From the NCBI GenBank assembly GCA_035604215.1, contig DATNIW010000104.1, forward strand, positions 1 through 60,261: a stretch of DNA of 60,261 bases, given 5' to 3'. Below the pieces are notes generated by a model, which did no database searches, was not told where the DNA came from, and worked only from the letters and a program-made list of their open reading frames with translations. Position numbers and translations under genes: made by a program. The stretch comes from Fibrobacteria bacterium (GTDB lineage: Bacteria > Fibrobacterota > Fibrobacteria > UBA5070). Below, in pieces: positions 2 through 58,441 of the stretch (positions are counted from its first letter, which is position 1; every line of letters begins with the position of its first letter).

Positions 2-1732
2 ATCGCCACCGTGGTTTCGGTGCTCCTCACCCTGCTCATCATGCTGGGCGTCTTCCGGAGGGCGGGACCCATCCTCCTGGTGCTGGGACAGGCGATCGTC
101 TCTTGTGCGCTCACCATGGGCTTCGCGACGCTGGTCTACGGCCGGCTCAACCTCTACACCGTGTTCGTGATCGCCATCCTCTTCGGCATGGGCACGGACT
201 ACTCGTTCTACCTGGTCGGCCATGCGCAGCGGCAAGTCCGCACCGGGGCATCCTGGGAGGACGCCCTGGCGCGGTCCTTCCGCGACCTGTCGCCTTCGCT
301 CGGGCTGGCGTGGCTCACCACGGTGGCGGGGCTTCTCGTCCTTCTCCTGTCGAAGTTCCCGGGATTCCACGAATTCGGCGTGATCGCTTCCGTGGGGATC
401 ACGTCCAGCCTGGTCCTCACCTGGATCTTCCTTCCCGCGGCCGTGCTCCTCGCCGACCGGATCTCCCGGCATCCCGCCGCGCGTTGGCTCTCCCCGGATC
501 CCGCTTCCCCTTGGCGCGGATTCGCGATGCGACCATGGATGTCCGCCCTGCCGCGCGATCTCGCCATCGCGGCCACGATCGGCGCCGCCTGCGCGCTGCC
601 TTTCGCCTTCCGCATCGGCTTCGAATACGACTTCGCCCGCCTCCAGGAATCCCCGGACGGATCGCAGAAGACACTTCCCGTCCAGGAGGCGTTGGGCACC
701 AAGCTGACCTCCAGCCAGCCGGTCGTGGTGCTGGTCCGCGATCCCGCGACCTTGGACAGGATCCACGACACCCTTCTCCACCGCCTGGGAGTGGAACACG
801 ACACCCTGCTCGCCGGCTTCCTGACTCCGCGCTCCTTCCTGCCCAAGCCGGATCTGCAGGCGGCCAGGATTCCCCACCTTCGACGGATCGCCGAAATCCT
901 GGAGGACACCGTCTTCGACCGCGCCGCGGGAGCCGATTCGCAGGCCGTCGCCAACCTGCGCGACATGGCCAAGGCCGACACCTTCGGATGGACAGGACTG
1001 CCCGAATGGGCCCGGGACCTGCTGCGGGAACGGGACGGGAGCACGGGCCGGATCGGATTCGTCTACGACAGGATCACCAACTCCGACTCGCGCGACGCCG
1101 AGAGGTTCGAGCGCCGATACGGGCATTTCGGCGGGGTGGGGGACTCCACGACCTGCTTTTCCTCGAGCTTCGTGTACGCGGATCTCGTGCGGCTGGTGCG
1201 GGACGACAGCCTGCGCATGACGCGAGCGATGGTCCTGGTCCTCTGCCTCCTGATCGTCCTGGTCTTCCGCAGGTGGCGACCCGTCCTGGTCTGCCTTTCC
1301 GGCATGGCCGTCTCCCTGGCGTGGATCCTGGGCCTCATGGGCATGTTCGACATCCGGTTGAACGTCTTCAATCTCATCGTCATCACCACCTTGCAGGCCG
1401 CGCTGACGGATGTGGTGATCTACATGGTCCTGGCCTGGGAGCGTCAGGGTCGCGTGGGGATCGGGCAGCTCTATTCCGGAATCGGAACCTTGATGACCGT
1501 CGCGATCGGCACCACCATCTCCGGATTCGCCGGGATGCTCTTCACGAGCCATCCTGGAATCCGCAGCATCGGATCCTTCGCCGTGGTGGGTCTGGCCTGC
1601 TGCCTGGCGGCGAGCCTGGCCGTCGTTCCTTGGCTGTGTTCCCGGCTGTTGACTCCGCCCCCAGCTCCGGATCCGACTCCGTCCCCGCTCTCGCCCCCCC
1701 GCCCGCGGACCCTCCCCGAAAGCCCGGAATGA
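2..1732 (+). CDS. MMPL/RND-superfamily transporter (5'-truncated by window edge)
   Basis: Two hydrophobic TM bundles separated by a soluble domain; GMGTDYSF motif (MMPL GxGxDY); frame is open from base 2; stop overlaps next ATG (ATGA at 1729-1732). Confidence 0.85.
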   Translation: MATVVSVLLTLLIMLGVFRRAGPILLVLGQAIVSCALTMGFATLVYGRLNLYTVFVIAILFGMGTDYSFYLVGHAQRQVRTGASWEDALARSFRDLSPSLGLAWLTTVAGLLVLLLSKFPGFHEFGVIASVGITSSLVLTWIFLPAAVLLADRISRHPAARWLSPDPASPWRGFAMRPWMSALPRDLAIAATIGAACALPFAFRIGFEYDFARLQESPDGSQKTLPVQEALGTKLTSSQPVVVLVRDPATLDRIHDTLLHRLGVEHDTLLAGFLTPRSFLPKPDLQAARIPHLRRIAEILEDTVFDRAAGADSQAVANLRDMAKADTFGWTGLPEWARDLLRERDGSTGRIGFVYDRITNSDSRDAERFERRYGHFGGVGDSTTCFSSSFVYADLVRLVRDDSLRMTRAMVLVLCLLIVLVFRRWRPVLVCLSGMAVSLAWILGLMGMFDIRLNVFNLIVITTLQAALTDVVIYMVLAWERQGRVGIGQLYSGIGTLMTVAIGTTISGFAGMLFTSHPGIRSIGSFAVVGLACCLAASLAVVPWLCSRLLTPPPAPDPTPSPLSPPRPRTLPESPE

Positions 1733-46933: not shown

Positions 46934-47119
46934 CTACTCCGGAGGGAGAAGCCACCAGAGCAGCAGGTACGCGACCACCACGGGAACCGTGGCGGCTCCG
47001 GTGAAGGCGAGAACACCTGCGGCGACCCTGACCCACAGAGGGTCGGTCCCCCACGACTCGGCCAGTCCCGCGCAGACGCCGGCGATCTTCCTGTCCTTTG
47101 ACCTGTGCGGTGCGCTCAT
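46934..47119 (-). CDS. PspC-domain protein
   Basis: RSKDRKIAGVCAGLAESWGTDPLWVRV...AYLLLWWLLP; 61 aa. Confidence 0.9.
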   Translation of the reverse strand: MSAPHRSKDRKIAGVCAGLAESWGTDPLWVRVAAGVLAFTGAATVPVVVAYLLLWWLLPPE

Positions 47120-48624
47120 CGCACGAAGTTAGATCGTCTCAGCCTGGCCGCGAGTTCGATCGGGTCCGGCCACGACGCGTCGGGATGGACCCAGATCGAG
47201 AAACCGGAATCGTCGGCGGGAGGAATCCATTGGGCGGCGCGGGTGCGCAGGAGTTCTTCCACCGACGGAAAGTACTCCTGCGGCATGGGTCTGGGCAGAC
47301 GCGAGGTCTCGAACGCGTGGGGTTCCACCGTGGCGACGCCCACGAGGCCCCGGGCGTTGTGGCTCTCCGGATAGGGCAGGACGAGTTCCTCCAACCGGTG
47401 CGAAAGCAGTTCCGCGAACCGGGCGGCCCCGGCAGCCCCGGTGTGCGAAAGCAGCAGGAGAAGCTCGTCCTGGTTCCCACGACCGGCGAGATCGGATCCC
47501 CGGATGGAGCTGCGCAAAAGATGCCCCACGTGCTCCAGCGAGATGTCGGCGTGCCGGGGATTCATGGCGCGCATGTCGCCCATCCCCTCGATGGACACCA
47601 TCGCGAAACTGACCGAGTGGCCGAATCGGAAGGCTTGTCGCAGTTCGCGAACGGCGATTTCCCGCCAGAACCGACGCGACTGCAGTCCCGTCACCGGATC
47701 GAGGGTCGCGCCCTGGCGCACCAGGCAACCATTCGCGATCTGCAGGGCCAGGAAGGAGAGGATCTCGGCCTGGGGCGAATCCGGCAATGGGGCGGGACGC
47801 GCCAGGATGCAACCGAGCCACCGGCCGTCGGCGCGCAGCGGCACGACCCCGAGACCGTGCGCCAGGATGGTGCTTTCCGTTCGCGGAGCGCGCGCCACGG
47901 CTCGTGCCAATTCGTGGCCGATCTGCGACTCCAGGCTGTCCTCGCGGCTCCACGCCCCCTTTGCGGCCACCACTTGGAGGTCTTCCGGACCTTCGGGCCC
48001 CTGGGGATCCCAGAAATCGGATTCCTCTTCCAGACGGGAAGGGGGGAGGTAGGTGGGCTGGATCGGGGCGAGCGCCACCAGAACGTCGTCCAGAGCCAAG
48101 GTTTCGGAGGCCTCGGCGAGGATGGCTTCCATCTCCATTTCCAAGGGCATCTTCTCGTCGGGGCGAAGGCAGCTTGAGATCACCTGGCGCAGCCCCTTGG
48201 AGGAAGCCTCCAACTGCCGCACCACGGCTCCGTGTCGCAGCGCCAACCCCACCCAGAGGAGCAATTCGTCGGGACCCCGGCTCTTGTCGCAGTAGCCCTG
48301 GATGTCCAGTCGGTCGATCAGCTCCCGGGGAGGACTTTCGGAGGAGTAGCCCGTCAGCAGCACCACCTGCAAGGTGGGATCGCGCACCTGCACCAGGATG
48401 TCCGGGGCCGAGAGTCCGGGCATGAAGTAGTCCAGGAGCAGCAGGTCGACCTGTTCCGATTCCAGGGCGGCCAGGCACTGGACGCCGTCCAGGGCGGTCA
48501 GGACCCGGTGACCTTCCCGTTCCAGGAGCGCTCGGGTGGATTCCAGGAATTCCACCTGGTCGTCGACGCAGAGGATGGTGCGTCCGGTCGAGGGCCGGTT
48601 CCCGGAATTCGGTCGCCGGCCCAT
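47116..48624 (-). CDS. Response regulator REC-GAF-like-degenerate GGDEF (probable c-di-GMP receptor)
   Basis: CVDDQ, LLDYFMPG, YCDKS; LDPVTGL; RGSD (RxxD) followed by RGNQDE instead of RYGGDEF; metal-binding DxDxFK replaced by SIEGMG. Confidence 0.85.
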   Translation of the reverse strand: MGRRPNSGNRPSTGRTILCVDDQVEFLESTRALLEREGHRVLTALDGVQCLAALESEQVDLLLLDYFMPGLSAPDILVQVRDPTLQVVLLTGYSSESPPRELIDRLDIQGYCDKSRGPDELLLWVGLALRHGAVVRQLEASSKGLRQVISSCLRPDEKMPLEMEMEAILAEASETLALDDVLVALAPIQPTYLPPSRLEEESDFWDPQGPEGPEDLQVVAAKGAWSREDSLESQIGHELARAVARAPRTESTILAHGLGVVPLRADGRWLGCILARPAPLPDSPQAEILSFLALQIANGCLVRQGATLDPVTGLQSRRFWREIAVRELRQAFRFGHSVSFAMVSIEGMGDMRAMNPRHADISLEHVGHLLRSSIRGSDLAGRGNQDELLLLLSHTGAAGAARFAELLSHRLEELVLPYPESHNARGLVGVATVEPHAFETSRLPRPMPQEYFPSVEELLRTRAAQWIPPADDSGFSIWVHPDASWPDPIELAARLRRSNFVR

Positions 48625-48625
48625 C

Positions 48626-50155
48626 TCACTGCTCCTCGCGGGACAGCAGGGTGGAGGCGATGGAAGAATCCTGCGAGGCTTCCCACAGGTTCGGGTCGGG
48701 CCAGTCGGATGTCTCGTCGAAGTGGAAGCAGTGTCCTCCGCACTTCTTCGATGCGTACACCATGCGGTCCGCGCGGGAAAAGGTCATGTGGAGCACTTGC
48801 TGGAAGTACCCGTTGGGGATGGGGCGGGGCAGGGTGTTCATCTCGAAGGAATGGGGCAGCAAGGTGGAAAGTCCCATGCTGGCGCGCAGGTCGTACGGGC
48901 CCATGGTGCCCTGCATGTCCTGGCGCTCCATCTCCCGCAGCACCCGGTTGCAGAACACCGTCGCTCCCTCCTGCGAGGTCCGCGGCAGAGCTGTGACGAA
49001 CTCGTCTCCGCCGTACCTGCCCACCACGTCGGACGACCGGGAGGATGCGCGCAGGATCCGGCCCACGGTTTCCAGCGCCTTGTCGCCGGTGAGATGCCCG
49101 TGGTGGTCGTTGATGCTCTTGAACCGGTCCAGGTCGAAGATGGCGAGGGTGATCGGATGGCGGAACCGGAAGGCGGTGCGGATCTCGCGCAGCGCCATCT
49201 GCTCCCAGAACTTCCGGGCGTAGACCCCGGTGAGGGGATCCAGCGTGGCCATCTGGTAGAGCTGGGCGTTCTGCACGGCCACCGCCGCCTGGTTCGCGAA
49301 CACGTTGAGCATCTCGATGTTTTCCGGTGCGATGCTCGGGACGTCGTCCAGGTAGATCACCCCGATGGTCAGCGCCCCGATCCGGAGCGGGACGCTGGTG
49401 CTCCGGGCCGCCCGCATCAGGGCGCCATCCTTGAGGGAATGCCGCACCTGCTCCAGCGCGTCGTCCTGCAGGGCCACCTCCACCCGTTCCTGCCCCTCGA
49501 AGCGGCCGATCCCGGCGTGGATGACGAGTTCCCGCTCCTCTTCCACCATGGCCAGGAAGGCGTCGGAGGCGCCGTCCTTGCGGTCGGTGCCGGCCTGGAC
49601 GGCCACGAACGAGTGCACCGCTCCGACCAGGCCCGCGATCTGGTAGAGGATGCCCTGAAGGAGCTCTTCCAGAGGTTGGATCCGGTGGAGATCGGGAGTG
49701 ACGTCCAGGATGTAGCGCAATCCCTGGCGGCTCATGTCCAGGGTGCGGACCTGCTTGGCGAATTTCAGCCCCACGTCCACCCAGAGCAGCAGCTCCTCGG
49801 GCCCTCCGCTCTTGTCGCAGTATCCCTGGATGTCCAGCCGGGCCAGCATCTCCCTGGGCGGGCGCTCGCTCGCGTATCCCGTCTGTAGGACGATCTGGAC
49901 GCGGGTGTTGAAGGTCCGCAGTTCGTTCACCACCTCTTCGCCGGTCATGCCCGGCATGAAGTAGTCCAGCAGCAGCAGCTCCACGTCCTCGCGCCGGAGG
50001 ATCGCCAGCGCGTCGGGACCGTTGTCCGCCACCAGGACGGTGTGTCCCTCGCGCTCCAGCAGGGCCACGGTGGAATCCAGGATCTCCTGGCTGTCGTCCA
50101 CCAGGAGGATGGTCCGTCCCGTGCCTTCGCGCCTCGCGTTGGTCTTTCGCGCCAT
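48626..50155 (-). CDS. Response regulator diguanylate cyclase (REC-DUF3369/GAF-like-GGDEF)
   Basis: LVDDS, LLDYFMPG, LDPLTGV, FDLDRFKSINDHHGHLTGD, RSSD I-site, RYGGDEF. Confidence 0.93.
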   Translation of the reverse strand: MARKTNARREGTGRTILLVDDSQEILDSTVALLEREGHTVLVADNGPDALAILRREDVELLLLDYFMPGMTGEEVVNELRTFNTRVQIVLQTGYASERPPREMLARLDIQGYCDKSGGPEELLLWVDVGLKFAKQVRTLDMSRQGLRYILDVTPDLHRIQPLEELLQGILYQIAGLVGAVHSFVAVQAGTDRKDGASDAFLAMVEEERELVIHAGIGRFEGQERVEVALQDDALEQVRHSLKDGALMRAARSTSVPLRIGALTIGVIYLDDVPSIAPENIEMLNVFANQAAVAVQNAQLYQMATLDPLTGVYARKFWEQMALREIRTAFRFRHPITLAIFDLDRFKSINDHHGHLTGDKALETVGRILRASSRSSDVVGRYGGDEFVTALPRTSQEGATVFCNRVLREMERQDMQGTMGPYDLRASMGLSTLLPHSFEMNTLPRPIPNGYFQQVLHMTFSRADRMVYASKKCGGHCFHFDETSDWPDPNLWEASQDSSIASTLLSREEQ

Positions 50156-50158
50156 GGT

Positions 50159-52687
50159 TCAAGCCTCCTGGATCGCGGGCAGCCGGACCGTGAAGGTGGT
50201 TCCGTCGCCGATGCGGCTGTCCACCTCGATGCGGCCGCCGAAGTCGCCTTGCACGATGTCGTGGATGATGGTGAGCCCGAGGCCGGTTCCCTTGCCGACG
50301 GGCTTGGTGGTGAACAAGGGATCGAAGATGCGGCCCATGTCCTCGTCGGAGATCCCCGTGCCCTGGTCGGAAACCAGCACGCGGACCTCGGACGCGTCGG
50401 CCTGGACGGAAATCGTCACGACTCCGCCGCCTCTGCGCTCCATGGCGTCGATGGCGTTGGTCACGAGGTTGGTGACCACCTGCGCGAAGCGGTCGGGGAT
50501 CCCCAGCACCGAGGCCGGTCGCGACCGGAAGTCCGTGCGCACTTCGCACTTCGCGCTCCGAAGCGTGTGGGACAGGAGGAGGACCGCCTCCTCCACGACC
50601 CGCACCAGGTCGAAGACCTGCTTGTCCTTGGCCCCCATGTCCCGGGTCTGGCTCTTGATGGACCGGACGAATCCGGCCGCCTTCTCGCTGGCGCGGGAGA
50701 CGATGTCCAGGGTCTTCAGCATGTCGCCGGCGATCTCGCGGTGGTCCTTCTCCTCCACGCCCGGGTCTCCGATGGAGTCCCGGTACTCCTCGACGAGCTT
50801 CCTGAGCTCGTCCACCGATCCGCGCACGGCGGCGAGCGGGGTGTTCATCTCGTGCGCGATTCCCGCCGTGAGCTTGCCCAGGCTCGCCATCTTCTCCGAG
50901 TGGACCAGTTGGCCCTGGTTCTTCCGCAGGTGGTCCAGAGCCTCCTCGAGCTCGTGGGTGCGGGTGCGCACCTCGCGCGACAGCCGCTCGCCCATCAGGG
51001 CGGCCGATATCTGGGTCCTGAGGGCGTCCAGGAGAACTCCGCGGCGCGGCGCGAGCTCCATGAGGGCGAACCCGAGAGGCGTCTCCTCGAAGAACAGCGG
51101 CTCCATGGCGAGGGAGGCGCGCACGGGCGATTCCCCGACCAGTGACCGCAGGAGTCCGCGGATGCGGACCAACCGGCCTTCCGGAGGAAGCTGGGCGCGC
51201 ACCCCCCTGGCCCAGGAAAGGATGAGGCGGAAATTGTCATCGGATGCGCCGGTCCGGTCCACGTCGCCCTCGGTCTTCTCCCTGAGCAGCAGGTGGCAGC
51301 TCGAGAGCTGCAGGAGAGGGAGGTCGGTCGCCAGGTTCTCGATCAGGTTCCCGACGTCGAAGCTCGTGATCAGGTGTCCGCCCGTCTCCTGGAGCTGTCG
51401 CGTCCAGCGTTCGATCTGGAGCGACTTGTAGGCCGACCTCTGGACCACGCGCTCGTGCGCCAGCAGCCGCAGCTGGTGGAAGATGCCCTCCACCGAAGGG
51501 GTCTCCGGTGATCCGGGGGGCAGGAAGGGAAGCGTCGCCTTGCGAAGCCGCGATACCAGGATCTGCCATCGGTCGGAATCGTCCGCGAACCCGGCGCTCT
51601 CGTCCAGGAGCGCTTCGAAGGAGCGCAACGAGGCCTCGCCTCCGGAGCCGGCGCGCGCATCCGAGGAGATCGCCGCGACCAGGGTGGAGAGGGCGGGGGA
51701 TTCCGCGAGGGCGGGATCCAGGGACTCCAGGGAAGACCGCACCGCGGCGAGGTGTCCTCCCGAGCCCAGCGACGGCTCGCGCGAAGTCCCGTCGCCGCGG
51801 GGCCGACCTTCCTCGATGGAGAAGGAATGGCAGCCGCAGGAGCCGCGCGCCACCAATGAGGCGGCCTGGAGCGTGATGTGCGGCGCGGTGCGGCCCGCCA
51901 TGAGGTCGAGAGCCAGCCGCATGCAGGTGCGCCCCTGCTCCACCACGGGTTGGCGCACCGAAGTGAGCGCGGGAGTGGAGAACATCGCGTCCTCGATGTC
52001 GTCGAATCCCGTCACGACGACGTCGTCCGGGACCCGCCGACCCGCCGCCTTCAGGGCTTCCATCGCTCCCAGGGCCATCTCGTCGTTGGCGGCGATCACG
52101 GCGTCGAAGGGAACGCCCCGTTCGAGCAGTTCTCGGATCCGGAGCCGCCCCAGGCCGAAGTCGAATTCACCCACCAGTTCCAGCTCGGGGTCGAGAACCA
52201 ACCGGTGCCTTTCCAGCACGGCGTGGAACGCCTGCCTGCGTTCGATGGCTTCGGGGTTGCGGACAGGTCCTCCCAGGAACACCGGCCTGCGGCGACCGTG
52301 GTGCCCCACCACGTGCTCCACAACCGATTCCATTCCCGCCGCGTTGTCCACCATCACGCAGGCCGAACCGGGGATCTCCATCCCGGCGACCACCACGGGG
52401 ACGGCGGGAAGCTTCCCGAGGAATTCGACGACCTGGTCGGGCGACAGCGAGTTGGCCACCGCGGGGGCCATCAGCACCAGGGCGTCCACGTCCTGGGCAT
52501 CCACCAGATGGAACGCCTGGTTCCGCATGCGCTTGACGAGGTCCGTGGATCCCACCTCCCCGCCGTTGAAGCTGATCAGGTCGCATCCCGCCGCGGTGGC
52601 TTCCGCATCGAGCCCGAGCCAGTGGCCGTACTGGTAGGAGCCCACCAGGTCGTTCACCAGCAATCCCACCACGGGACGTGCTTCCAT
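50159..52687 (-). CDS. Soluble histidine kinase with N-terminal LacI/periplasmic-binding-protein-like sugar sensor domain
   Basis: VMVDNAAGM..VVEHVV..HGRRR.VFLGGP..N.EA.ER, FDAVIAANDEMALGA, VPDDVVVTGFDD, PALTSVRQP; GIAHEMNTPL, NLVTNAIDA, FTTKPVGKGTGLGL; no HTH, TM or signal peptide; start 52687. Confidence 0.92.
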   Translation of the reverse strand: MEARPVVGLLVNDLVGSYQYGHWLGLDAEATAAGCDLISFNGGEVGSTDLVKRMRNQAFHLVDAQDVDALVLMAPAVANSLSPDQVVEFLGKLPAVPVVVAGMEIPGSACVMVDNAAGMESVVEHVVGHHGRRRPVFLGGPVRNPEAIERRQAFHAVLERHRLVLDPELELVGEFDFGLGRLRIRELLERGVPFDAVIAANDEMALGAMEALKAAGRRVPDDVVVTGFDDIEDAMFSTPALTSVRQPVVEQGRTCMRLALDLMAGRTAPHITLQAASLVARGSCGCHSFSIEEGRPRGDGTSREPSLGSGGHLAAVRSSLESLDPALAESPALSTLVAAISSDARAGSGGEASLRSFEALLDESAGFADDSDRWQILVSRLRKATLPFLPPGSPETPSVEGIFHQLRLLAHERVVQRSAYKSLQIERWTRQLQETGGHLITSFDVGNLIENLATDLPLLQLSSCHLLLREKTEGDVDRTGASDDNFRLILSWARGVRAQLPPEGRLVRIRGLLRSLVGESPVRASLAMEPLFFEETPLGFALMELAPRRGVLLDALRTQISAALMGERLSREVRTRTHELEEALDHLRKNQGQLVHSEKMASLGKLTAGIAHEMNTPLAAVRGSVDELRKLVEEYRDSIGDPGVEEKDHREIAGDMLKTLDIVSRASEKAAGFVRSIKSQTRDMGAKDKQVFDLVRVVEEAVLLLSHTLRSAKCEVRTDFRSRPASVLGIPDRFAQVVTNLVTNAIDAMERRGGGVVTISVQADASEVRVLVSDQGTGISDEDMGRIFDPLFTTKPVGKGTGLGLTIIHDIVQGDFGGRIEVDSRIGDGTTFTVRLPAIQEA

Positions 52688-52689
52688 GC

Positions 52690-55689
52690 CTATTTCTCCT
52701 TGGCGGTGTGGATTCCGTCCCACGAGGACGGGGGTGTTTCCATGTAGGAGGCGCAGCGTACGGCGAAGACCTCGCTGGGGTTGGTCTTGGCTCCGGGCTC
52801 CCCTCCGTTCGGCTCCAGGTCCAGGCACGCCAGGAAGCCGTCGCGCGCGCTCCCGAATTCGCCGGCCTGGTAGAGGGCGCGGGCCTGGCCAAAGGTCCGG
52901 ACGCATTCCACCCAGGTCCCGGGTGCGTTCTCCTCGAGTCCCAGGATCTCGTGGACCACGACGGCCTCTTCCCTACCCACCACGCGCAGAAGATCCAGCT
53001 CGCGGGACAGGATTCCGCTTCCGGCCGCGTCCAAGGTGGACGAGGTGGTCAGGATCCAGACGCCGTACTGCTTGGATGCGCCCTCCAGGCGTGCGGCAAG
53101 GTTCACGTCGTCCCCCATCATGGTGTAGTTCATCCGCAGGTCAGACCCCATGTTGCCGGTGACGATCCGACCGGTGTGGACGCCGATGCGCATGCGCATC
53201 CGGTGCACGATCTCCGGCCATCTCGGTGCTTCATTCTCCCATTTTTCCCGGAGACGGGCCAGCCGCTCCTGCATGGCGATGGCGGCGAGCAGGGCCTGGC
53301 GGGGGTGGTCGGGCAAGGGAATCGGGGCGCCGAACATGGCGACGATGGCGTCCCCGATGTACTTGTCCAGGCAGCCTTGGCGCTGCGTCAGGATGTCCGT
53401 CATGGCCTTGAAGTACTCGTTGATCAGTTCCACCAGGTCGGGAGGGGAGAGGACCTCCGAGAAGGTGGAGAAGCCCTGGATGTCGCTGAAGAAGGCGGTG
53501 ATCTCGCGTTCTTCCCCGCCCAGCCTGGGGAGCATCCCCGAGGACACCATCTGGTCGATCAGTTCGGGGCTGATGTAGGTGCTGAACGAGGTGTGGAGGA
53601 ATTTCCGCTGCCGCTCTTCCAGGACGTAGCGGACCGCGAGGACGGCGACCAGGGCGAAGGGCATGGCGAGCATCGGACCCAGTTGCCGGATCCAGAGTCC
53701 GCGGTCGAAGGCCATGGTGGAGCCCGCGAAGAACGCGGGAGCCAGGAGCAGGAGGGCGAAGATGGCCCATCCCGGCGGCAGGAGGATGGTGGCGAGGCCC
53801 ATGACCATGGCGGCGGCCAGGACCAGGAGAAGGTCCACCCAGGCGGGAACGGGGGCCAGCGAATCGCCCCAGGCCAACGCCAGCGCCTCGGTGGCCTGGA
53901 GGTTCACGCCGGGATGGTGGCGTTGGATGGGGACGTCGATGAAGTCCGCCAGGGCCGGCGCGGAGGACCCCAGGACGAAGATCCGTCCCGGGATCTGGTC
54001 GGGATCGTACCGGCCTTCCAGCACGTCCAGGTAGCTGACATGCCGGATCCACGCCTGGTCGGGTCCCCGGTTCTCCCATTGCGAAGGCGCCTGGAAAGGG
54101 ACGTACGCGGCGCCGCTCCCGTCCAGGGGAACGACGATGGGATCGCCCAGGGCCAGGGTGTCGCGCGGTCCCAGGGATTCGACCCGCAGGGGATCCAGGG
54201 CCAGGAGCGCATCGAGGGAGCTTCCGCGCAAACAGGGGATGGACGAGGCCAGGCGGCGGCGCACCGGATCCCACCAGACTTCGATCCAGTTCGAGATGCG
54301 CACTTCGGAGTCCGGGGGGAACCCCTTCCATCCGTCTCGGGACAGGTCCATCAAAGGCTTGCGGAGCCGTTCCAGGGTGGAGGAATCCAGGGCCGGTCCG
54401 TCCACGAACGAATCCCTCGCGACGCGTCGCGACAGGACGAGCCCGTCGGGGGTCATGGAGGCTGCGACGGAATCCGTCGGCATCGTCCGGCCCGGGGCCG
54501 GTGGAATCCCGGCGGGAAACGCGCCGTCGCGCAGCAGGACGGCCAGGGCGCGGACCCGGGCGTCGTCCAGGCTGTCGGGGTAGGGGAGGGCCACCCGGAG
54601 CCTGCCCGCGGAATCGCGATCGATCCAGAGCTGGCGCGTGGGTTCGAGCACCCCGGCCCGGACCCGCCGCAGGCTGTCCAACGCGGATTTGGAGGCGAGA
54701 AGGTCCCGGCACATGGGCCAGGTCAGTTCGGGGGCCGAAGTCTCGATTCCCGCGGTGCCCTTCCAGATCCTGAGGGGCGCTCCCAGCAGGAGACGATCCC
54801 CCTCCAGCCGGAATCCGTCGGCAGGCCTGCCCAGGAGGACCAGGGCGGAGGAGAGGGAAAGGGCGGGGTAGGCGGCTTCCCGGGCCTGGGAAGTGTCGGG
54901 CGACGCGTCGATCGAATCCGGAAACCGCCACAGCAGCTGGACGCGGCGCACGGTGCCGTCGGGGTCGGGTTCCACGTTGGCGAGACCCAGGCGGGAGGCG
55001 GACCGGGCGAGGTCGGGGTAGAGGTTGTCCAGCGTCGCGCGTGCGCGCAGGCCGGCGAGGCACGAATCGGGAAGGGAGATCCCCTTCCAAAGCGAATCCT
55101 GCCACGAACGGGTGGCCCGGGGGATCCAGTCCGAGGGATTCGGGTAGTCCAGCTTGTTCCCCAACTGGGCGGCCACCACCGCCCTCGGGGAGCGGCGCAC
55201 GGCGGTTTCCAGGGTCCGCGACCAGTCCAGGCGACGACGGAGCCTTTCGCGGGACTCCGCGGAAGAGGGGACCGGCCATCCGGCTTCCCTCAGGTCCTGC
55301 AGCGTGGACTCCAGCCGGGCGGCGCCGGAATCGGAGGTCTTGAACAGGATGTCGAAGACCACGGCGCCGGCACCGTGCCGCGAGAGACGGTCCAGCACCG
55401 CGGCGTGCTGGACCCGGTAGTTCTCCCCGTAGACGCCCAGGGCGCGCAGCGAGCGTTCGTCCACGTCCACCACCGTGACGGGAGCCGGAACGTCGTTTTC
55501 CGTTGGTCCGCGGACCACCATCCACGTCCAGTGGCGGAAATCGTCCAGGACTCCTTCCAGGCGGCTGGAGGGACCCTTGAGCGCGAACTCGACGGCCAGG
55601 GAGGCGAAGGCGGCCAGGATGGACGCGGCCATTCCCCAGGCGAACCGACGAACGCGGGGAGAGAGTCGTCTGGCGGCGGAGTCGGACAT
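52690..55689 (-). CDS. CHASE2-domain adenylate/guanylate cyclase (class III)
   Basis: VVDVDERSL, VVFDILF, PDPDGTVRR, GVNLQA, 3 TMs, FFSDIQGFST, DKYIGDAI, MGDDVNLAARLEG; TPR-like tail. Confidence 0.93.
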   Translation of the reverse strand: MSDSAARRLSPRVRRFAWGMAASILAAFASLAVEFALKGPSSRLEGVLDDFRHWTWMVVRGPTENDVPAPVTVVDVDERSLRALGVYGENYRVQHAAVLDRLSRHGAGAVVFDILFKTSDSGAARLESTLQDLREAGWPVPSSAESRERLRRRLDWSRTLETAVRRSPRAVVAAQLGNKLDYPNPSDWIPRATRSWQDSLWKGISLPDSCLAGLRARATLDNLYPDLARSASRLGLANVEPDPDGTVRRVQLLWRFPDSIDASPDTSQAREAAYPALSLSSALVLLGRPADGFRLEGDRLLLGAPLRIWKGTAGIETSAPELTWPMCRDLLASKSALDSLRRVRAGVLEPTRQLWIDRDSAGRLRVALPYPDSLDDARVRALAVLLRDGAFPAGIPPAPGRTMPTDSVAASMTPDGLVLSRRVARDSFVDGPALDSSTLERLRKPLMDLSRDGWKGFPPDSEVRISNWIEVWWDPVRRRLASSIPCLRGSSLDALLALDPLRVESLGPRDTLALGDPIVVPLDGSGAAYVPFQAPSQWENRGPDQAWIRHVSYLDVLEGRYDPDQIPGRIFVLGSSAPALADFIDVPIQRHHPGVNLQATEALALAWGDSLAPVPAWVDLLLVLAAAMVMGLATILLPPGWAIFALLLLAPAFFAGSTMAFDRGLWIRQLGPMLAMPFALVAVLAVRYVLEERQRKFLHTSFSTYISPELIDQMVSSGMLPRLGGEEREITAFFSDIQGFSTFSEVLSPPDLVELINEYFKAMTDILTQRQGCLDKYIGDAIVAMFGAPIPLPDHPRQALLAAIAMQERLARLREKWENEAPRWPEIVHRMRMRIGVHTGRIVTGNMGSDLRMNYTMMGDDVNLAARLEGASKQYGVWILTTSSTLDAAGSGILSRELDLLRVVGREEAVVVHEILGLEENAPGTWVECVRTFGQARALYQAGEFGSARDGFLACLDLEPNGGEPGAKTNPSEVFAVRCASYMETPPSSWDGIHTAKEK

Positions 55690-57111: not shown

Positions 57112-58398
57112 CTAGTCGACCGATCTCGCCCAGCGTTCGACTTCCCGTCGGAGTCTGCCCAGTTCCACGGGTTCCCTCCAGTCGCGCAGGAGGGTCCAGG
57201 CCGCCAGCTTCGACAGGCGGACGATCCGATCGACCCAAAGGGGCTTGGCGTCCCTGTGCTGCAGGGCGAACGCCCCGACTTCGGCGTAGAGGATGTGCCA
57301 CCGGACCAGGTTCATGCCCCATCCCCAGATCACGCCGCGTCGGGAAAGCCTCCAACGCTCCGCATCCTCGGGTCCGGGACGGTGGAGCCCCGCTAGGAAG
57401 AACAGATCCTCCATCCCCGGAGGGCAGGTCGCCAGGAGCTGCTGCGCCCCGGAGGTCAGGAAATGGCGGATCACCTGTTCCCAGAGCCCGAAGAAGACGT
57501 CGGGAACCACCCACTCGCGGCGGAGCTTCAGGAAGACGACCTTCCGCAAGCTGTCGGCCGGGGTTTCCAACAGCGCGGCCCCGACCAGCAGGTGTCCGTC
57601 CCACACTCCGATCCTCTCGCCCTGCCCGTCTTCCGACTGCTCCAGGAAGCCGTCCACTTCCTTCCGCTCGCCCACCTCCTCGACCTTGCGGAACCGGAAC
57701 TGTCCCTCCATGGTCGAGGTGCGGAATCCCAGGTCCTGCAGATCCAGCGGTGGACGGAGCCGGTCCAGTTCCAGCCACTCCCCCAGGGCCGAAGCGAGGT
57801 CCGGATCCGGGTCCAGGATCCGCAGACCCATGCGCACGGTCTGTCCGGTCCCCGGGCGCCACCAGAGGATCTGGCATTCCCAGGACCGACCGGTCAGGAG
57901 GGGGATGTCCAGGTGGAACGGCGCTCGATGACCGGGAAGCAGGTAGCCCGGACCACCGATGGTTTCCACCTGGAAACCGAGGTCGGAGGCGATGTCCACG
58001 ATCCGCAGCCGGCTCCAGACGCGGTGCGCATGGCGAAGGGGCATGCGGGCGAACAGCGAGTCCTGGGGAAGGTACACCCTGGTTCGACCGCGCCTCTCCA
58101 GGCTGGACCACGCGGAGGGCTCGCAAGGCCAGGAAAGGCCCAGCGCTCCGGACACGGGATCGTAACCGCGCACGAGCCCATCGCGCAGGACCGTGGGCTG
58201 GCCTCGGAAGGCGATGCGGACGGGGATGGTTTCGCCGGCCGGAAGCATCGAGAGCGGGGGAAGCGTGAGACCGATCCCGCCGGGGGAAAGATCCCTCAAC
58301 TCGGGCATCAGGCGCGTCCCCGGGATCCTCACCCGGCAGGCGGTCAGGATCTCCGGGCTCAGCCGCGTCCAACGCCGCTGTTCGATCGTGGCTGGCAT
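57112..58398 (-). CDS. Tandem PilZ-domain protein with C-terminal GNAT/FeeM-like domain
   Basis: QRRWTR + DLSPGG (PilZ 1); ERRGRTR + DIASDLG (PilZ 2, atypical); C-terminal FRFRKVE...GVWDGHLLVGAALL...L acyltransferase-like strand pattern. Confidence 0.75.
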   Translation of the reverse strand: MPATIEQRRWTRLSPEILTACRVRIPGTRLMPELRDLSPGGIGLTLPPLSMLPAGETIPVRIAFRGQPTVLRDGLVRGYDPVSGALGLSWPCEPSAWSSLERRGRTRVYLPQDSLFARMPLRHAHRVWSRLRIVDIASDLGFQVETIGGPGYLLPGHRAPFHLDIPLLTGRSWECQILWWRPGTGQTVRMGLRILDPDPDLASALGEWLELDRLRPPLDLQDLGFRTSTMEGQFRFRKVEEVGERKEVDGFLEQSEDGQGERIGVWDGHLLVGAALLETPADSLRKVVFLKLRREWVVPDVFFGLWEQVIRHFLTSGAQQLLATCPPGMEDLFFLAGLHRPGPEDAERWRLSRRGVIWGWGMNLVRWHILYAEVGAFALQHRDAKPLWVDRIVRLSKLAAWTLLRDWREPVELGRLRREVERWARSVD

Positions 58399-58441
58399 GG
58401 ATCTGTCATCCAAGGTAGCTCGCGGGAAACCGGGAAGACCG

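Follow-up and report, generated by a model that had tools for sequence, protein, structure and literature searches.

A genus-wide degenerate GGDEF response regulator of uncultured Fibrobacteria as a candidate phosphorylation-gated c-di-GMP binder

Gene B (P0001) lies on the reverse strand at positions 47116..48624 of the window, i.e., the whole stretch of 60,261 nucleotides that was analysed, and encodes in an intact open reading frame a protein of 502 aa with REC, GAF-like and GGDEF-fold domains, a degenerate paralog of the canonical diguanylate cyclase encoded by the adjoining gene A. On balance, we consider it probable that B is an old, genus-wide pseudo-cyclase, a phosphorylation-gated c-di-GMP binder that has lost catalysis while its receiver and its RxxD motif have been kept. 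The comparisons described below support the view that B is a GGDEF paralog that is conserved, under selection and unable to catalyse, and whose phospho-acceptor receiver is intact. By analogy, the best reading is that B would be to A, in functional terms, what PopA is to PleD, although independently derived.

Both the Pfam profile (GGDEF PF00990, 48.2 bits for a cut-off of 23.8) and the predicted GGDEF fold place B in the GGDEF superfamily, and the Response_reg profile scored 52.7 bits. The AF2 model had a mean pLDDT of 84.1, with blocks of the GGDEF domain mostly at 82-97; its best Foldseek matches were PleD, WspR and DgcR, while the GGDEF domain also matched GcbC and the first half of the model matched the REC-GAF structures 6oap/6ob8. 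Along the protein, the REC domain (48229..48579, reverse strand; residues 16-132) is followed by a middle GAF-like, DUF3369-related domain (47710..48219, reverse strand; residues 136-305), by the degenerate GGDEF-fold domain (47290..47709, reverse strand; residues 306-445) and by a C-terminal W485-P-D-P motif (47161..47172, reverse strand) that is common to A and B in the alignment, W485 being invariant in 76/76 aligned A and B sequences and P486 being present in 100% of B. The middle domain is the fastest-evolving part of B (mean pairwise identity of 0.42 vs. 0.64 in the co-resident A proteins). It aligned with the DUF3369/GAF domain of A along its full length and was predicted to adopt an alpha/beta fold, with a low-confidence loop at residues 186-216; the DUF3369 profile was not detected in P0001, although it is on record for two other members of the B clade, P0042 and P0043. 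The architecture and the full-length homology to A (37% identity in BLASTP, E=1e-93) make B a member of the REC-DUF3369(GAF-like)-GGDEF response regulators. We found no output domain beyond the GGDEF fold in B, and no transmembrane segment in its model or its sequence.

To describe the loss of catalytic residues, conservation was compared between 42 representatives of the B clade (41-100% identical) and 75 A-type proteins. Fourteen residues of the catalytic domain that were conserved at 99-100% in the A-type proteins (D341, D343, K346, N349, D350, G353, H354, G357, G382, G383, F386, D463, Y467, and K470, in the numbering of A) were retained in 0-12% of the B proteins. The preliminary description of this DNA had read the GGDEF signature as replaced by GNQDE. 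That string is present (residues 383-387) but the register was off by one: GGDEF aligns with N384-Q-D-E-L388 (47461..47475, reverse strand), and G383 of B aligns with the Tyr/Phe preceding GGDEF in A. The Gly pair of the signature (G382/G383), found in 100% of A, was retained in 0% and 10% of B, and the slot itself varies among B orthologs (NQDEL, DHDEI, DQDEI, DKDEI/L, TDSQI). The replacement of DLDRFK by SIEGMG was recovered as first described, residues 341-346 of A aligning with residues 344-349 of B; the former metal/transition-state motif DxDxFK thus reads S344-I-E-G-M-G349 (47578..47595, reverse strand). Here D341, D343 and K346 of A, 100% conserved among A-type proteins, were retained in 0-10% of B, and N349 and D350 were also lost, the substitutions being D341 to S/G/T/A/V, K346 to D/G/E, N349 to R/P, and K470 to a variable residue or a gap. 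We take the metal-binding Asp, the transition-state Lys and the guanine-binding Asn to be the equivalents of D327, K332 and N335 of PleD. As for the AD..Y.AK helix, reported earlier as lost, its motif residues are indeed gone (A-D-x-x-x-Y-x-x-K, residues 462-470 of A, aligns with AAQWIPPA in B) but AlphaFold still predicts a helix at residues 451-464. Judging from its sequence, B, in which we found neither GG[DE]EF, nor the Asp, Lys and Asn of DxDxFKxxND, nor the Lys of the C-terminal ADxxLYxAK, is no longer able to make c-di-GMP.

The RxxD motif announced for the I-site position (around 47490-47502) was located at residues 375-378 (RGSD, 47491-47502), within the stretch I374-R-G-S-D-L-A380 (47485..47505, reverse strand) and five residues upstream of the GGDEF slot (N384), which is the canonical I-site spacing. 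In the alignment of 42 B sequences, R375 was conserved at 98%, G376, D378 and L379 at 100%, and A380 at 93%. The window 374-380 (consensus IRG[ST]DLA) ranked first among the 135 seven-residue windows of the B GGDEF domain and was tighter in B than in the co-resident A proteins (entropy of 0.32 vs. 0.87); RxxD was kept even in the outlier P0074, although Pfam did not detect a GGDEF domain there. The composition of the I-site includes a third arginine on the following helix, R390 in PleD (PMC7288161). On the helix that follows the signature strand of B (residues 397-412 in the model), the stretch from R402 to R410 (47395..47421, reverse strand) contains L406 (47407-47409) in the column of PleD R390 and A R404; this column is Arg in 100% of A but Leu in 60%, Met in 33% and Arg in 2% of B, so that the third arginine of the site is missing. 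Two arginines flank L406 at i-4 and i+4, one helical turn on either side: R402 (47419-47421; Arg in 88% of B) and R410 (47395-47397), which is Arg in 98% of B and clade-specific (Glu in 40% of A). The canonical I-site of B is by this alignment two-thirds intact, and Arg410 and Arg402 would probably help RxxD bind c-di-GMP in place of the lost third arginine, a suggestion drawn from helical periodicity only. The presence of Leu/Met at the R390-type position counts against reading B as a c-di-GMP receptor, all the more as this arginine is kept in most of the other degenerate members of the family, and so does the lack of an output domain. Some residues of the former active site are still fairly conserved in B (D360 and R382 at 95%, D386 at 79%, and E387 at 71%), which could mean residual nucleotide binding at the A-site and in this respect counts against the I-site reading.

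The genomic setting of B suggests with which proteins it might work. Gene A (P0002; 48626..50155, reverse strand) encodes a canonical REC-DUF3369/GAF-GGDEF diguanylate cyclase of 509 aa with an RSSD I-site (Pfam GGDEF at 105.7 bits, DUF3369, and REC), in which the full set of catalytic and I-site residues is present. The two genes belong to a cassette whose order, CHASE2-cyclase, soluble PBP-histidine kinase, A, and B, is kept in G005, G006, G008 and the JGI contig L031. The first gene (52690..55689, reverse strand), directly upstream of the kinase gene in these same four cases, encodes a CHASE2 / class III nucleotidyl cyclase (Pfam CHASE2 and Guanylate_cyc), and the second (50159..52687, reverse strand) a soluble histidine kinase whose N-terminal sensor domain resembles LacI-type periplasmic binding proteins (Pfam Peripla_BP_3/1/4, HisKA, and HATPase_c) and whose start is likely M74 of a long ORF. 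The gap between the kinase gene and A is 3 nt; the A stop codon is separated by 1 nt from the B ATG, which has GAGGAG 7 nt upstream, and the adjacency of A and B is kept throughout the B clade. On the other side, the ATG of a 61-aa PspC-domain membrane protein (46934..47119, reverse strand; PF04024, E=4.6e-19) overlaps the B stop codon (ATGA), a coupling that was also found in G003, G005 and G007 and was absent in G001, G006, G008, G009 and L031. Scans of the operon for promoters and terminators gave nothing above shuffled expectation. The c-di-GMP network genes of the genome comprise 8 GGDEF, 1 EAL and 2 PilZ hits.

In the mechanism that we favour, the kinase would phosphorylate both A and B, A~P would make c-di-GMP, and this would be bound by B at RxxD, probably aided by the clade-specific Arg410/Arg402. 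Since it has no output domain, B would then relay the combined phosphorylation and c-di-GMP state through protein-protein contacts. Candidate partners are A, the kinase or both, which would amount to feedback, some other protein or, where the translational coupling exists (part of the clade), the PspC-domain membrane protein. The covariation of co-resident A/B pairs in helix alpha-1 of the REC domain was counted in favour of a shared kinase: these pairs were more alike than non-co-resident ones (0.603 vs. 0.527, permutation p=0.0001), although this p-value overstates the support because there were few independent substitution events (three subclades). There was no such effect in other domains.

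The tight linkage of A and B could also be explained if B were an inhibitory (dominant-negative) or regulatory subunit of A, which we regard as a real possibility without thinking it likely. Phosphorylated B would form a heterodimer with A via REC alpha4-beta5-alpha5, giving one GTP half-site and no synthesis, and the RxxD of B would cross-link the GGDEF domains via (c-di-GMP)2 as an operon-built, product-sensing brake. Cyclase activity requires two GTP-loaded GGDEF domains, which is consistent with such a role. The 1-nt gap with its internal Shine-Dalgarno suggests co-translation at matched levels, and the conserved adjacency points in the same direction, as do REC residues 91-120, the part in which A and B are most alike (77% vs. 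37% overall), and the R/K that 91% of B keep where the xRRF turn carries the trans-acting I-site arginine (architecture per PMC7288161). However, distant A-type proteins conserve alpha4-beta5-alpha5 just as well, so that its similarity between A and B is not specific to a heterodimer; moreover, related degenerate proteins occur without an active neighbour, and one outlier contig carries two neighbours that are both degenerate. A related scheme, which we consider unlikely, is that A and B assemble upon phosphorylation into a heteromeric cyclase that leaves catalysis to A and product sensing to B. The remodelled I-site (RxxD with R410/R402) would then give it another threshold for c-di-GMP or another ligand preference, and in part of the clade PspC would couple the complex to the membrane. 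If true, a second-messenger synthase would here be built in the manner of a kinase and its pseudokinase.

The reading of B as a phosphorylation-gated c-di-GMP binder has precedents. Dead GGDEF domains that keep RxxD, such as those of PopA and PelD, act as c-di-GMP receptors, and PopA arose through the duplication of an active REC-GGDEF cyclase (PMC10333796). Like B, PopA (Caulobacter vibrioides) is a response regulator with a dead GGDEF domain and a kept RxxD, the duplicate of an active cyclase (PleD in its case), and it has no separate output domain but works via protein-protein contacts. The architecture differs, REC-REC-GGDEF in PopA and REC-GAF-like(DUF3369-related)-GGDEF in B, which, by this and by its descent, falls outside the PopA family. 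B also differs from PopA by having the cyclase of its own lineage as its source (37-39% identity to A-type proteins, 16-19% to PleD), by standing in one operon with the kinase and the active sister, immediately behind the latter, by the loss of the R390-type arginine and by the strict conservation of its phospho-acceptor machinery. PelD (Pseudomonas aeruginosa) binds c-di-GMP via R367, D370 and R402, and the R402A mutation, at the counterpart of the arginine that B has lost, abolishes binding (PMC2170427). The degenerate, RxxD-bearing GGDEF domain of PelD comes after a GAF domain, as that of B comes after a GAF-like one, and R410 of B is found 32 residues downstream of the RxxD Asp, which is the D370-R402 spacing of PelD, a lead based on sequence spacing only. 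Unlike B, PelD is membrane-anchored, has no receiver and is part of the Pel polysaccharide machinery; the combination of transmembrane helices, GAF and degenerate GGDEF in a pel operon that marks the PelD family was not found in B, whose N-terminal domain is a REC and whose operon consists of signalling genes. CbrR (Campylobacter jejuni), in which mutation of the I-site abolishes c-di-GMP binding (PMC8779298), is, like B, a response regulator whose active-site and I-site motifs are both variant, but it is a REC-REC-GGDEF protein with a KGRD I-site that reportedly makes a little c-di-GMP and has no paired active paralog. Finally, PleD, WspR and DgcR, the best structural matches of the B model, share with B the REC-linker-GGDEF logic and RxxD five residues before the signature; they are active enzymes with feedback through the I-site and have a full GG[DE]EF, the R390-type arginine and the metal Asp, Lys and Asn, whereas B is without all of these residues.

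Within the REC-DUF3369-GGDEF family, other degenerate members (P0125, P0127, P0128, P0132, P0159, P0166, P0167, P0169, and P0205) have the architecture of B, an eroded GGDEF and a kept RxxD. One of them, P0127, follows a PBP-histidine kinase of the kind encoded ahead of A and B; because it sits alone behind a kinase of the same type, dead members of the family can apparently work without an adjacent active sister. The two other degenerate lineages that were checked (P0127 and P0128) were single genes with no adjoining active sister, which suggests that the tandem active/dead layout is confined to this genus-level clade.

The nearest relatives of B outside its own clade were A-type REC-DUF3369-GGDEF proteins, with at most 39% identity, compared with 16-19% for PleD in fold alignments, in agreement with the earlier proposal of a PopA-like but independently evolved origin. 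In the FastTree phylogeny, B formed one clade with 100% support and a long stem. When this tree was midpoint-rooted, B fell outside all A-type sequences, a placement that we regard as a long-branch effect because B has the Cys of 'IQGYCDKS' and the WPDP tail in common with the co-resident A clade. Descent from the local cyclase lineage, and not from PopA or PelD, is the origin that these sequence comparisons support. Orthology with PopA or PelD was excluded by the A-type relatives, the separate B clade, the fold matches and the lack of a PelD-chain match among those listed, PelD chains giving no significant sequence match among the best 60 of 86 PDB sequence matches (E<=0.001). The preliminary description had further presented B as a tandem duplicate with near-identical REC DNA. 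The full-length neighbouring paralog is there but the REC domains of A and B are 58% identical in protein, 63% in DNA and 46% at third codon positions. The duplication is therefore old, and with these DNA values neither gene conversion nor a recent duplication can account for the REC region; outside helix alpha-1, co-resident A/B pairs were no more alike than non-co-resident pairs, which argues further against gene conversion.

That dead GGDEF domains with an I-site serve as c-di-GMP receptors is textbook knowledge, so that B is most likely a c-di-GMP sensor of a well-known kind and the general idea is already known; nor would B be a new kind within its family, since degenerate members keeping RxxD recur there. 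What this case adds is the presence of an active cyclase, its pseudo-enzyme paralog and a kinase in one operon across a genus of uncultured Fibrobacteria, the about 44 clusters of B providing a clean natural experiment. From the A/B pair one could learn how a sensor evolves out of a feedback site, down to the replacement of the third I-site arginine by flanking ones, and whether pseudo-cyclases are receptors or inhibitory subunits. The label 'diguanylate cyclase' given by JGI/NCBI would be wrong for B proteins.

It is quite unlikely, in our view, that the site of B has been remodelled for another ligand (pGpG, GTP, (p)ppGpp, or another cyclic dinucleotide), or that its former active site still holds a guanine nucleotide through D360, R382, D386 and E387. 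The replacement of an invariant Arg by L/M while the clade-specific R410 became nearly fixed would be consistent with this, as would the conservation of D360 and R382, and the titles of PDB entries 9g85/9g86 mention PleD with (p)ppGpp as well as c-di-GMP. However, RxxD at canonical spacing is a hallmark of c-di-GMP binding, and the residues that bind guanine (Asn), metal (Asp) and phosphate (Lys) have all been lost.

The receiver of B has all the features of a phosphorylatable domain (acidic pair, Asp, Thr/Ser, and Lys), namely D21/D22, the phospho-acceptor D65 (48430-48432), T91 and K114. In 76 aligned A and B sequences, D21, D22, D65 and K114 were invariant and T91 was conserved at 90% at least, and the four most conserved 7-mers of the whole B protein all fell within REC active-site motifs. 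Such an intact and highly conserved active site, in the same operon as A and with the alpha-1 covariation, would also suit a phosphate sink that competes with A for the phosphoryl groups of the kinase and shapes signal kinetics, the GGDEF fold being a ligand-less structural remnant. Branched two-component pathways are known to use response regulators as such sinks. We nevertheless give this explanation little credence, since a sink needs neither an I-site as its best-conserved C-terminal stretch nor the clade-specific invariant residues Q315, L379, R410 and L414 of the C-terminal domain, and since the GGDEF domain is under purifying selection.

Relaxed selection, which would have spoken against a function of B as first proposed, was contradicted by dN/dS values of 0.12-0.16 across all domains, which also rule out a pseudogene. 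These values (0.159 in G000-G003 and 0.12 in G006-G009) indicate that B is under purifying selection; for the GGDEF domain in particular, dN/dS was 0.154 in B (G000-G003) vs. 0.060 in A. That B is a decaying duplicate without function is hardly credible: it does evolve faster than A (dN about 1.5-2.2 times that of A, and lower identity in the middle domain), but its ORF is intact in 8 genomes, constraint extends to every domain, and the clade has its own invariant residues. B orthologs were found in 8/10 genomes of the genus and in about 44 protein clusters, down to 41% identity, and the sister genus has a single canonical copy only.

The degenerate paralog B (P0001; 47116-48624, minus strand) is an intact open reading frame of 502 codons, in which Pfam recovered a receiver (residues 17-122, 52.7 bits) and a GGDEF domain with a low but significant score (residues 306-437, 48.2 bits; cut-off 23.8). 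The gene immediately upstream, on the same strand, is A (P0002; 48626-50155, 509 aa), a canonical diguanylate cyclase with a REC / DUF3369-GAF / GGDEF architecture, whose GGDEF domain scored 105.7 bits. The alignment of A and B spans the full length of both proteins (37% identity, E=1e-93). They are thus full-length paralogs, as the preliminary description had proposed in calling them tandem duplicates, but, contrary to that description, their REC regions are not near-identical in DNA. Identity between the receivers is 63% at the nucleotide level and 58% at the protein level, and only 46% at third codon positions, which makes the duplication an old one.

The active site of B is dead. D341-L-D-R-F-K346 of A aligns with S344-I-E-G-M-G349 of B, and the A462-D-x-x-x-Y-x-x-K470 motif of A with AAQWIPPA, confirming both losses noticed earlier. 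The GGDEF signature is also replaced, although the replacement had been read as GNQDE, one residue off, since GGDEF aligns with N384-Q-D-E-L388. When 42 B and 75 A-type sequences were aligned, D341, D343, K346, N349, D350, G353, H354, G357, G382, G383, F386, D463, Y467 and K470 were present in 99-100% of the A-type proteins and kept in 0-12% of B. They cover the metal-binding Asp, transition-state Lys, guanine-binding Asn and phosphate-binding Lys as well as the two glycines of the signature; without them B cannot be an ordinary cyclase. The receiver of B is intact: across A and B, D21, D22, D65 and K114 are invariant, and conservation of T91 is 90% or higher.

The RxxD motif of the I-site, the allosteric c-di-GMP site of GGDEF domains, is conserved. 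As previously described, B has an RGSD at this position (R375-G-S-D378; 47491-47502), with exactly five residues between it and the signature slot. Among B sequences, G376, D378 and L379 are 100% conserved, R375 98% (with one Lys) and A380 93%, position 377 being Ser or Thr. No other 7-mer of the GGDEF domain is as conserved as the 374-380 stretch (rank 1 of 135), which comes fifth across the whole protein, preceded only by four REC active-site motifs; its mean entropy is lower in B (0.32) than in the co-resident A clade (0.87). RSSD is still present in a highly divergent outlier, P0074, where Pfam detects no GGDEF domain.

Besides RxxD, the canonical I-site comprises a third arginine, PleD R390, on the next helix, and an arginine supplied in trans, R313 (PMC7288161). 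The retention of the I-site is strict for the RxxD stretch but not for the R390-type arginine, a change that had gone unnoticed: this position is Arg in 100% of A (R404), whereas in B (L406) Leu (60%) or Met (33%) takes its place. The arginine is kept by most of the other degenerate proteins of the REC-DUF3369-GGDEF family. In PelD, the mutation R402A abolished c-di-GMP binding (PMC2170427). On one predicted helix of B (397-412), R410, which is clade-specific and 98% conserved, and R402 (88%) lie at i+4 and i-4 from L406, presumably on the same helix face. In the xRRF turn, the source of the trans arginine, 91% of B sequences have Arg or Lys at the first basic position. The loss of the R390-type arginine together with the presence of R410 and R402 suggests an I-site that is conserved yet remodelled. 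This leaves room for a changed affinity or specificity, and canonical binding is predicted less confidently.

Purifying selection on B is clear in every domain; relaxed selection, raised beforehand as an argument against a function, was not observed (overall dN/dS of 0.12-0.16). Using the Nei-Gojobori method on the least saturated pair of genomes (G000-G003, dS 0.3-0.4), we obtained a dN/dS of 0.159 for B (REC 0.159, middle 0.121, GGDEF 0.154, tail 0.293) and 0.094 for A (GGDEF 0.060), the pair G006-G009 giving 0.12 and 0.09, respectively. Non-synonymous change was roughly twice as fast in B as in A. An AlphaFold2 model of B, built from a 76-sequence alignment, had a mean pLDDT of 84.1, with mostly 82-97 in the GGDEF-fold domain. 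The best Foldseek matches in the PDB were PleD, WspR and DgcR, and the N-terminal half matched the REC-GAF sensor kinases 6oap/6ob8. The pLDDT values and these matches indicate that the fold is intact.

Among the 40 related genomes searched, 8 of the 10 congeneric ones had orthologs of B (43-88% identical), each adjoined by an A ortholog or with A at an adjacent contig end, and the sister genus had one canonical copy only. The protein database contained about 44 B-type clusters down to 41% identity, with A-type proteins only below that (<=39%); one B-type protein carries the NCBI label 'Fibrobacteria bacterium'. Phylogenetic analysis of 42 B sequences, 75 A-type sequences and the outlier P0074 placed B and P0074 in one clade, with 100% support and a long stem. 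The A-like gene upstream of P0074 on a Logan contig, P0122, is degenerate (GGDEF to SWSEF, DxD..K lost, RSSD kept), both members of this pair being dead (L032:3-926 and L032:941-2383).

B is linked to A in an operon. The order CHASE2-class III cyclase, PBP-type histidine kinase, A and B is identical in three genomes (G005, G006 and G008) and on a 238-kb JGI contig carrying the most divergent B subclade. Both junctions around A are tight: 3 nt lie between the kinase stop and the A start, 1 nt separates the stop of A from the start of B, and GAGGAG lies 7 nt upstream of the B ATG. At its longest (50159-52906, minus strand, 915 aa) the kinase ORF runs into the cyclase gene upstream of it, and the start is likely M74 at 52687 (MEARPVV...), giving 842 aa, which agrees with the 814 aa called for the ortholog on JGI contig L031. 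The kinase has no hydrophobic segment, which places its LacI-type binding-protein sensor domain in the cytoplasm. The CHASE2 / class III adenylate-guanylate cyclase (52690-55689, minus strand) opens the conserved cassette and ends 2 nt before the kinase start; a cNMP input into the GAF-like domains of A and B is conceivable.

The alpha-1 helix of response regulators is their contact surface for the kinase. For 12 A-B pairs placed on the same contig, by direct inspection or by contigs of identical length, alpha-1 of REC (residues 22-38) was more alike than in non-co-resident pairs (0.603 versus 0.527; permutation p=0.0001), an effect absent in these pairs from the rest of REC (p=0.24), the middle domain (p=0.16) and GGDEF (p=0.09). 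This covariation fits A and B tracking one kinase, although with few independent substitutions and three subclades it is only suggestive. Examples (A residues 21-37, B residues 22-38; 48520-48560) are LES[TM] with LES[TS] and LEA[IV] with L[EMAD]AN.

We propose that the soluble kinase with its LacI-type binding-protein sensor would phosphorylate both A and B, that phosphorylated A would make c-di-GMP, and that B would bind it at the predicted I-site and, without an output domain, act via protein contacts. B may be a downstream receptor or adaptor, PopA-like and standing alone; the single degenerate RxxD-keeping relatives found elsewhere alone behind the same kind of kinase (P0127, P0128) favor this possibility. 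B may also be a brake on A, through an inactive heterodimer cross-linked by c-di-GMP, as the translational coupling of the two genes and the 77% A/B similarity of the alpha4-beta5-alpha5 face (residues 91-120) would suggest.

GGDEF domains devoid of catalysis but keeping the I-site are established c-di-GMP receptors, as in PopA and PelD (PMC10333796, PMC2170427) and CbrR (PMC8779298). The general idea is thus already known, and what is distinctive in B is the conserved tandem with an active sister and the swapped third arginine. By analogy B could work like PopA, yet it falls outside the PopA family, has one REC and a GAF-like domain, and descended from the cyclase of its own lineage, with which it shares an operon. 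Near B, 21 of 68 full-length REC-DUF3369-GGDEF representatives scored as degenerate but RxxD-positive, under a strict scoring that also flagged GGDEL/GGEEL variants, so that loss of catalysis with RxxD kept is a recurrent trajectory in this family. Such proteins also occur in other lineages (among P0125-P0239); one of them, P0127 (NGNLF, RSSD), follows the same type of PBP-histidine kinase as its only response regulator (L034:3496-7485, JGI contig).

Downstream of B, a 61-aa membrane protein with a PspC domain (46934-47119, minus strand; PF04024, E=4.6e-19) has its start overlapping the B stop (ATGA), as also in G003, G005 and G007; this ORF was not found downstream of B in G001, G006, G008, G009 and JGI contig L031. 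In part of the clade this protein could be a partner of B at the membrane, and its occurrence roughly follows the B C-terminal tail RS[TN][LF]. Across the genome (2.8 Mb, 87% complete), 8 hits to GGDEF, one to EAL and two to PilZ were counted. One of the two PilZ proteins is in the window, 8.5 kb from B (57112-58413, minus strand; PF07238, E=7e-8), and lies upstream of the kinase-cyclase cassette at a distance of about 4.4 kb.

A conserved B-specific motif, [LV]PPSx[LF]EE (residues 194-200; 48025-48045; E200 100%), occupies a low-confidence loop of the GAF-like domain in place of the A strand F[LV]AMxEE and could serve as a short linear motif or a remodelled lid. Past the GGDEF domain, the family has a further feature, the C-terminal W485, which none of the 76 A- and B-type sequences lacks, distant phyla included; in the genus it lies in a WPDP motif (47161-47172 in B, about 48692-48703 in A) followed in both paralogs by an S-T-[LF]-[LFW]-like tail.
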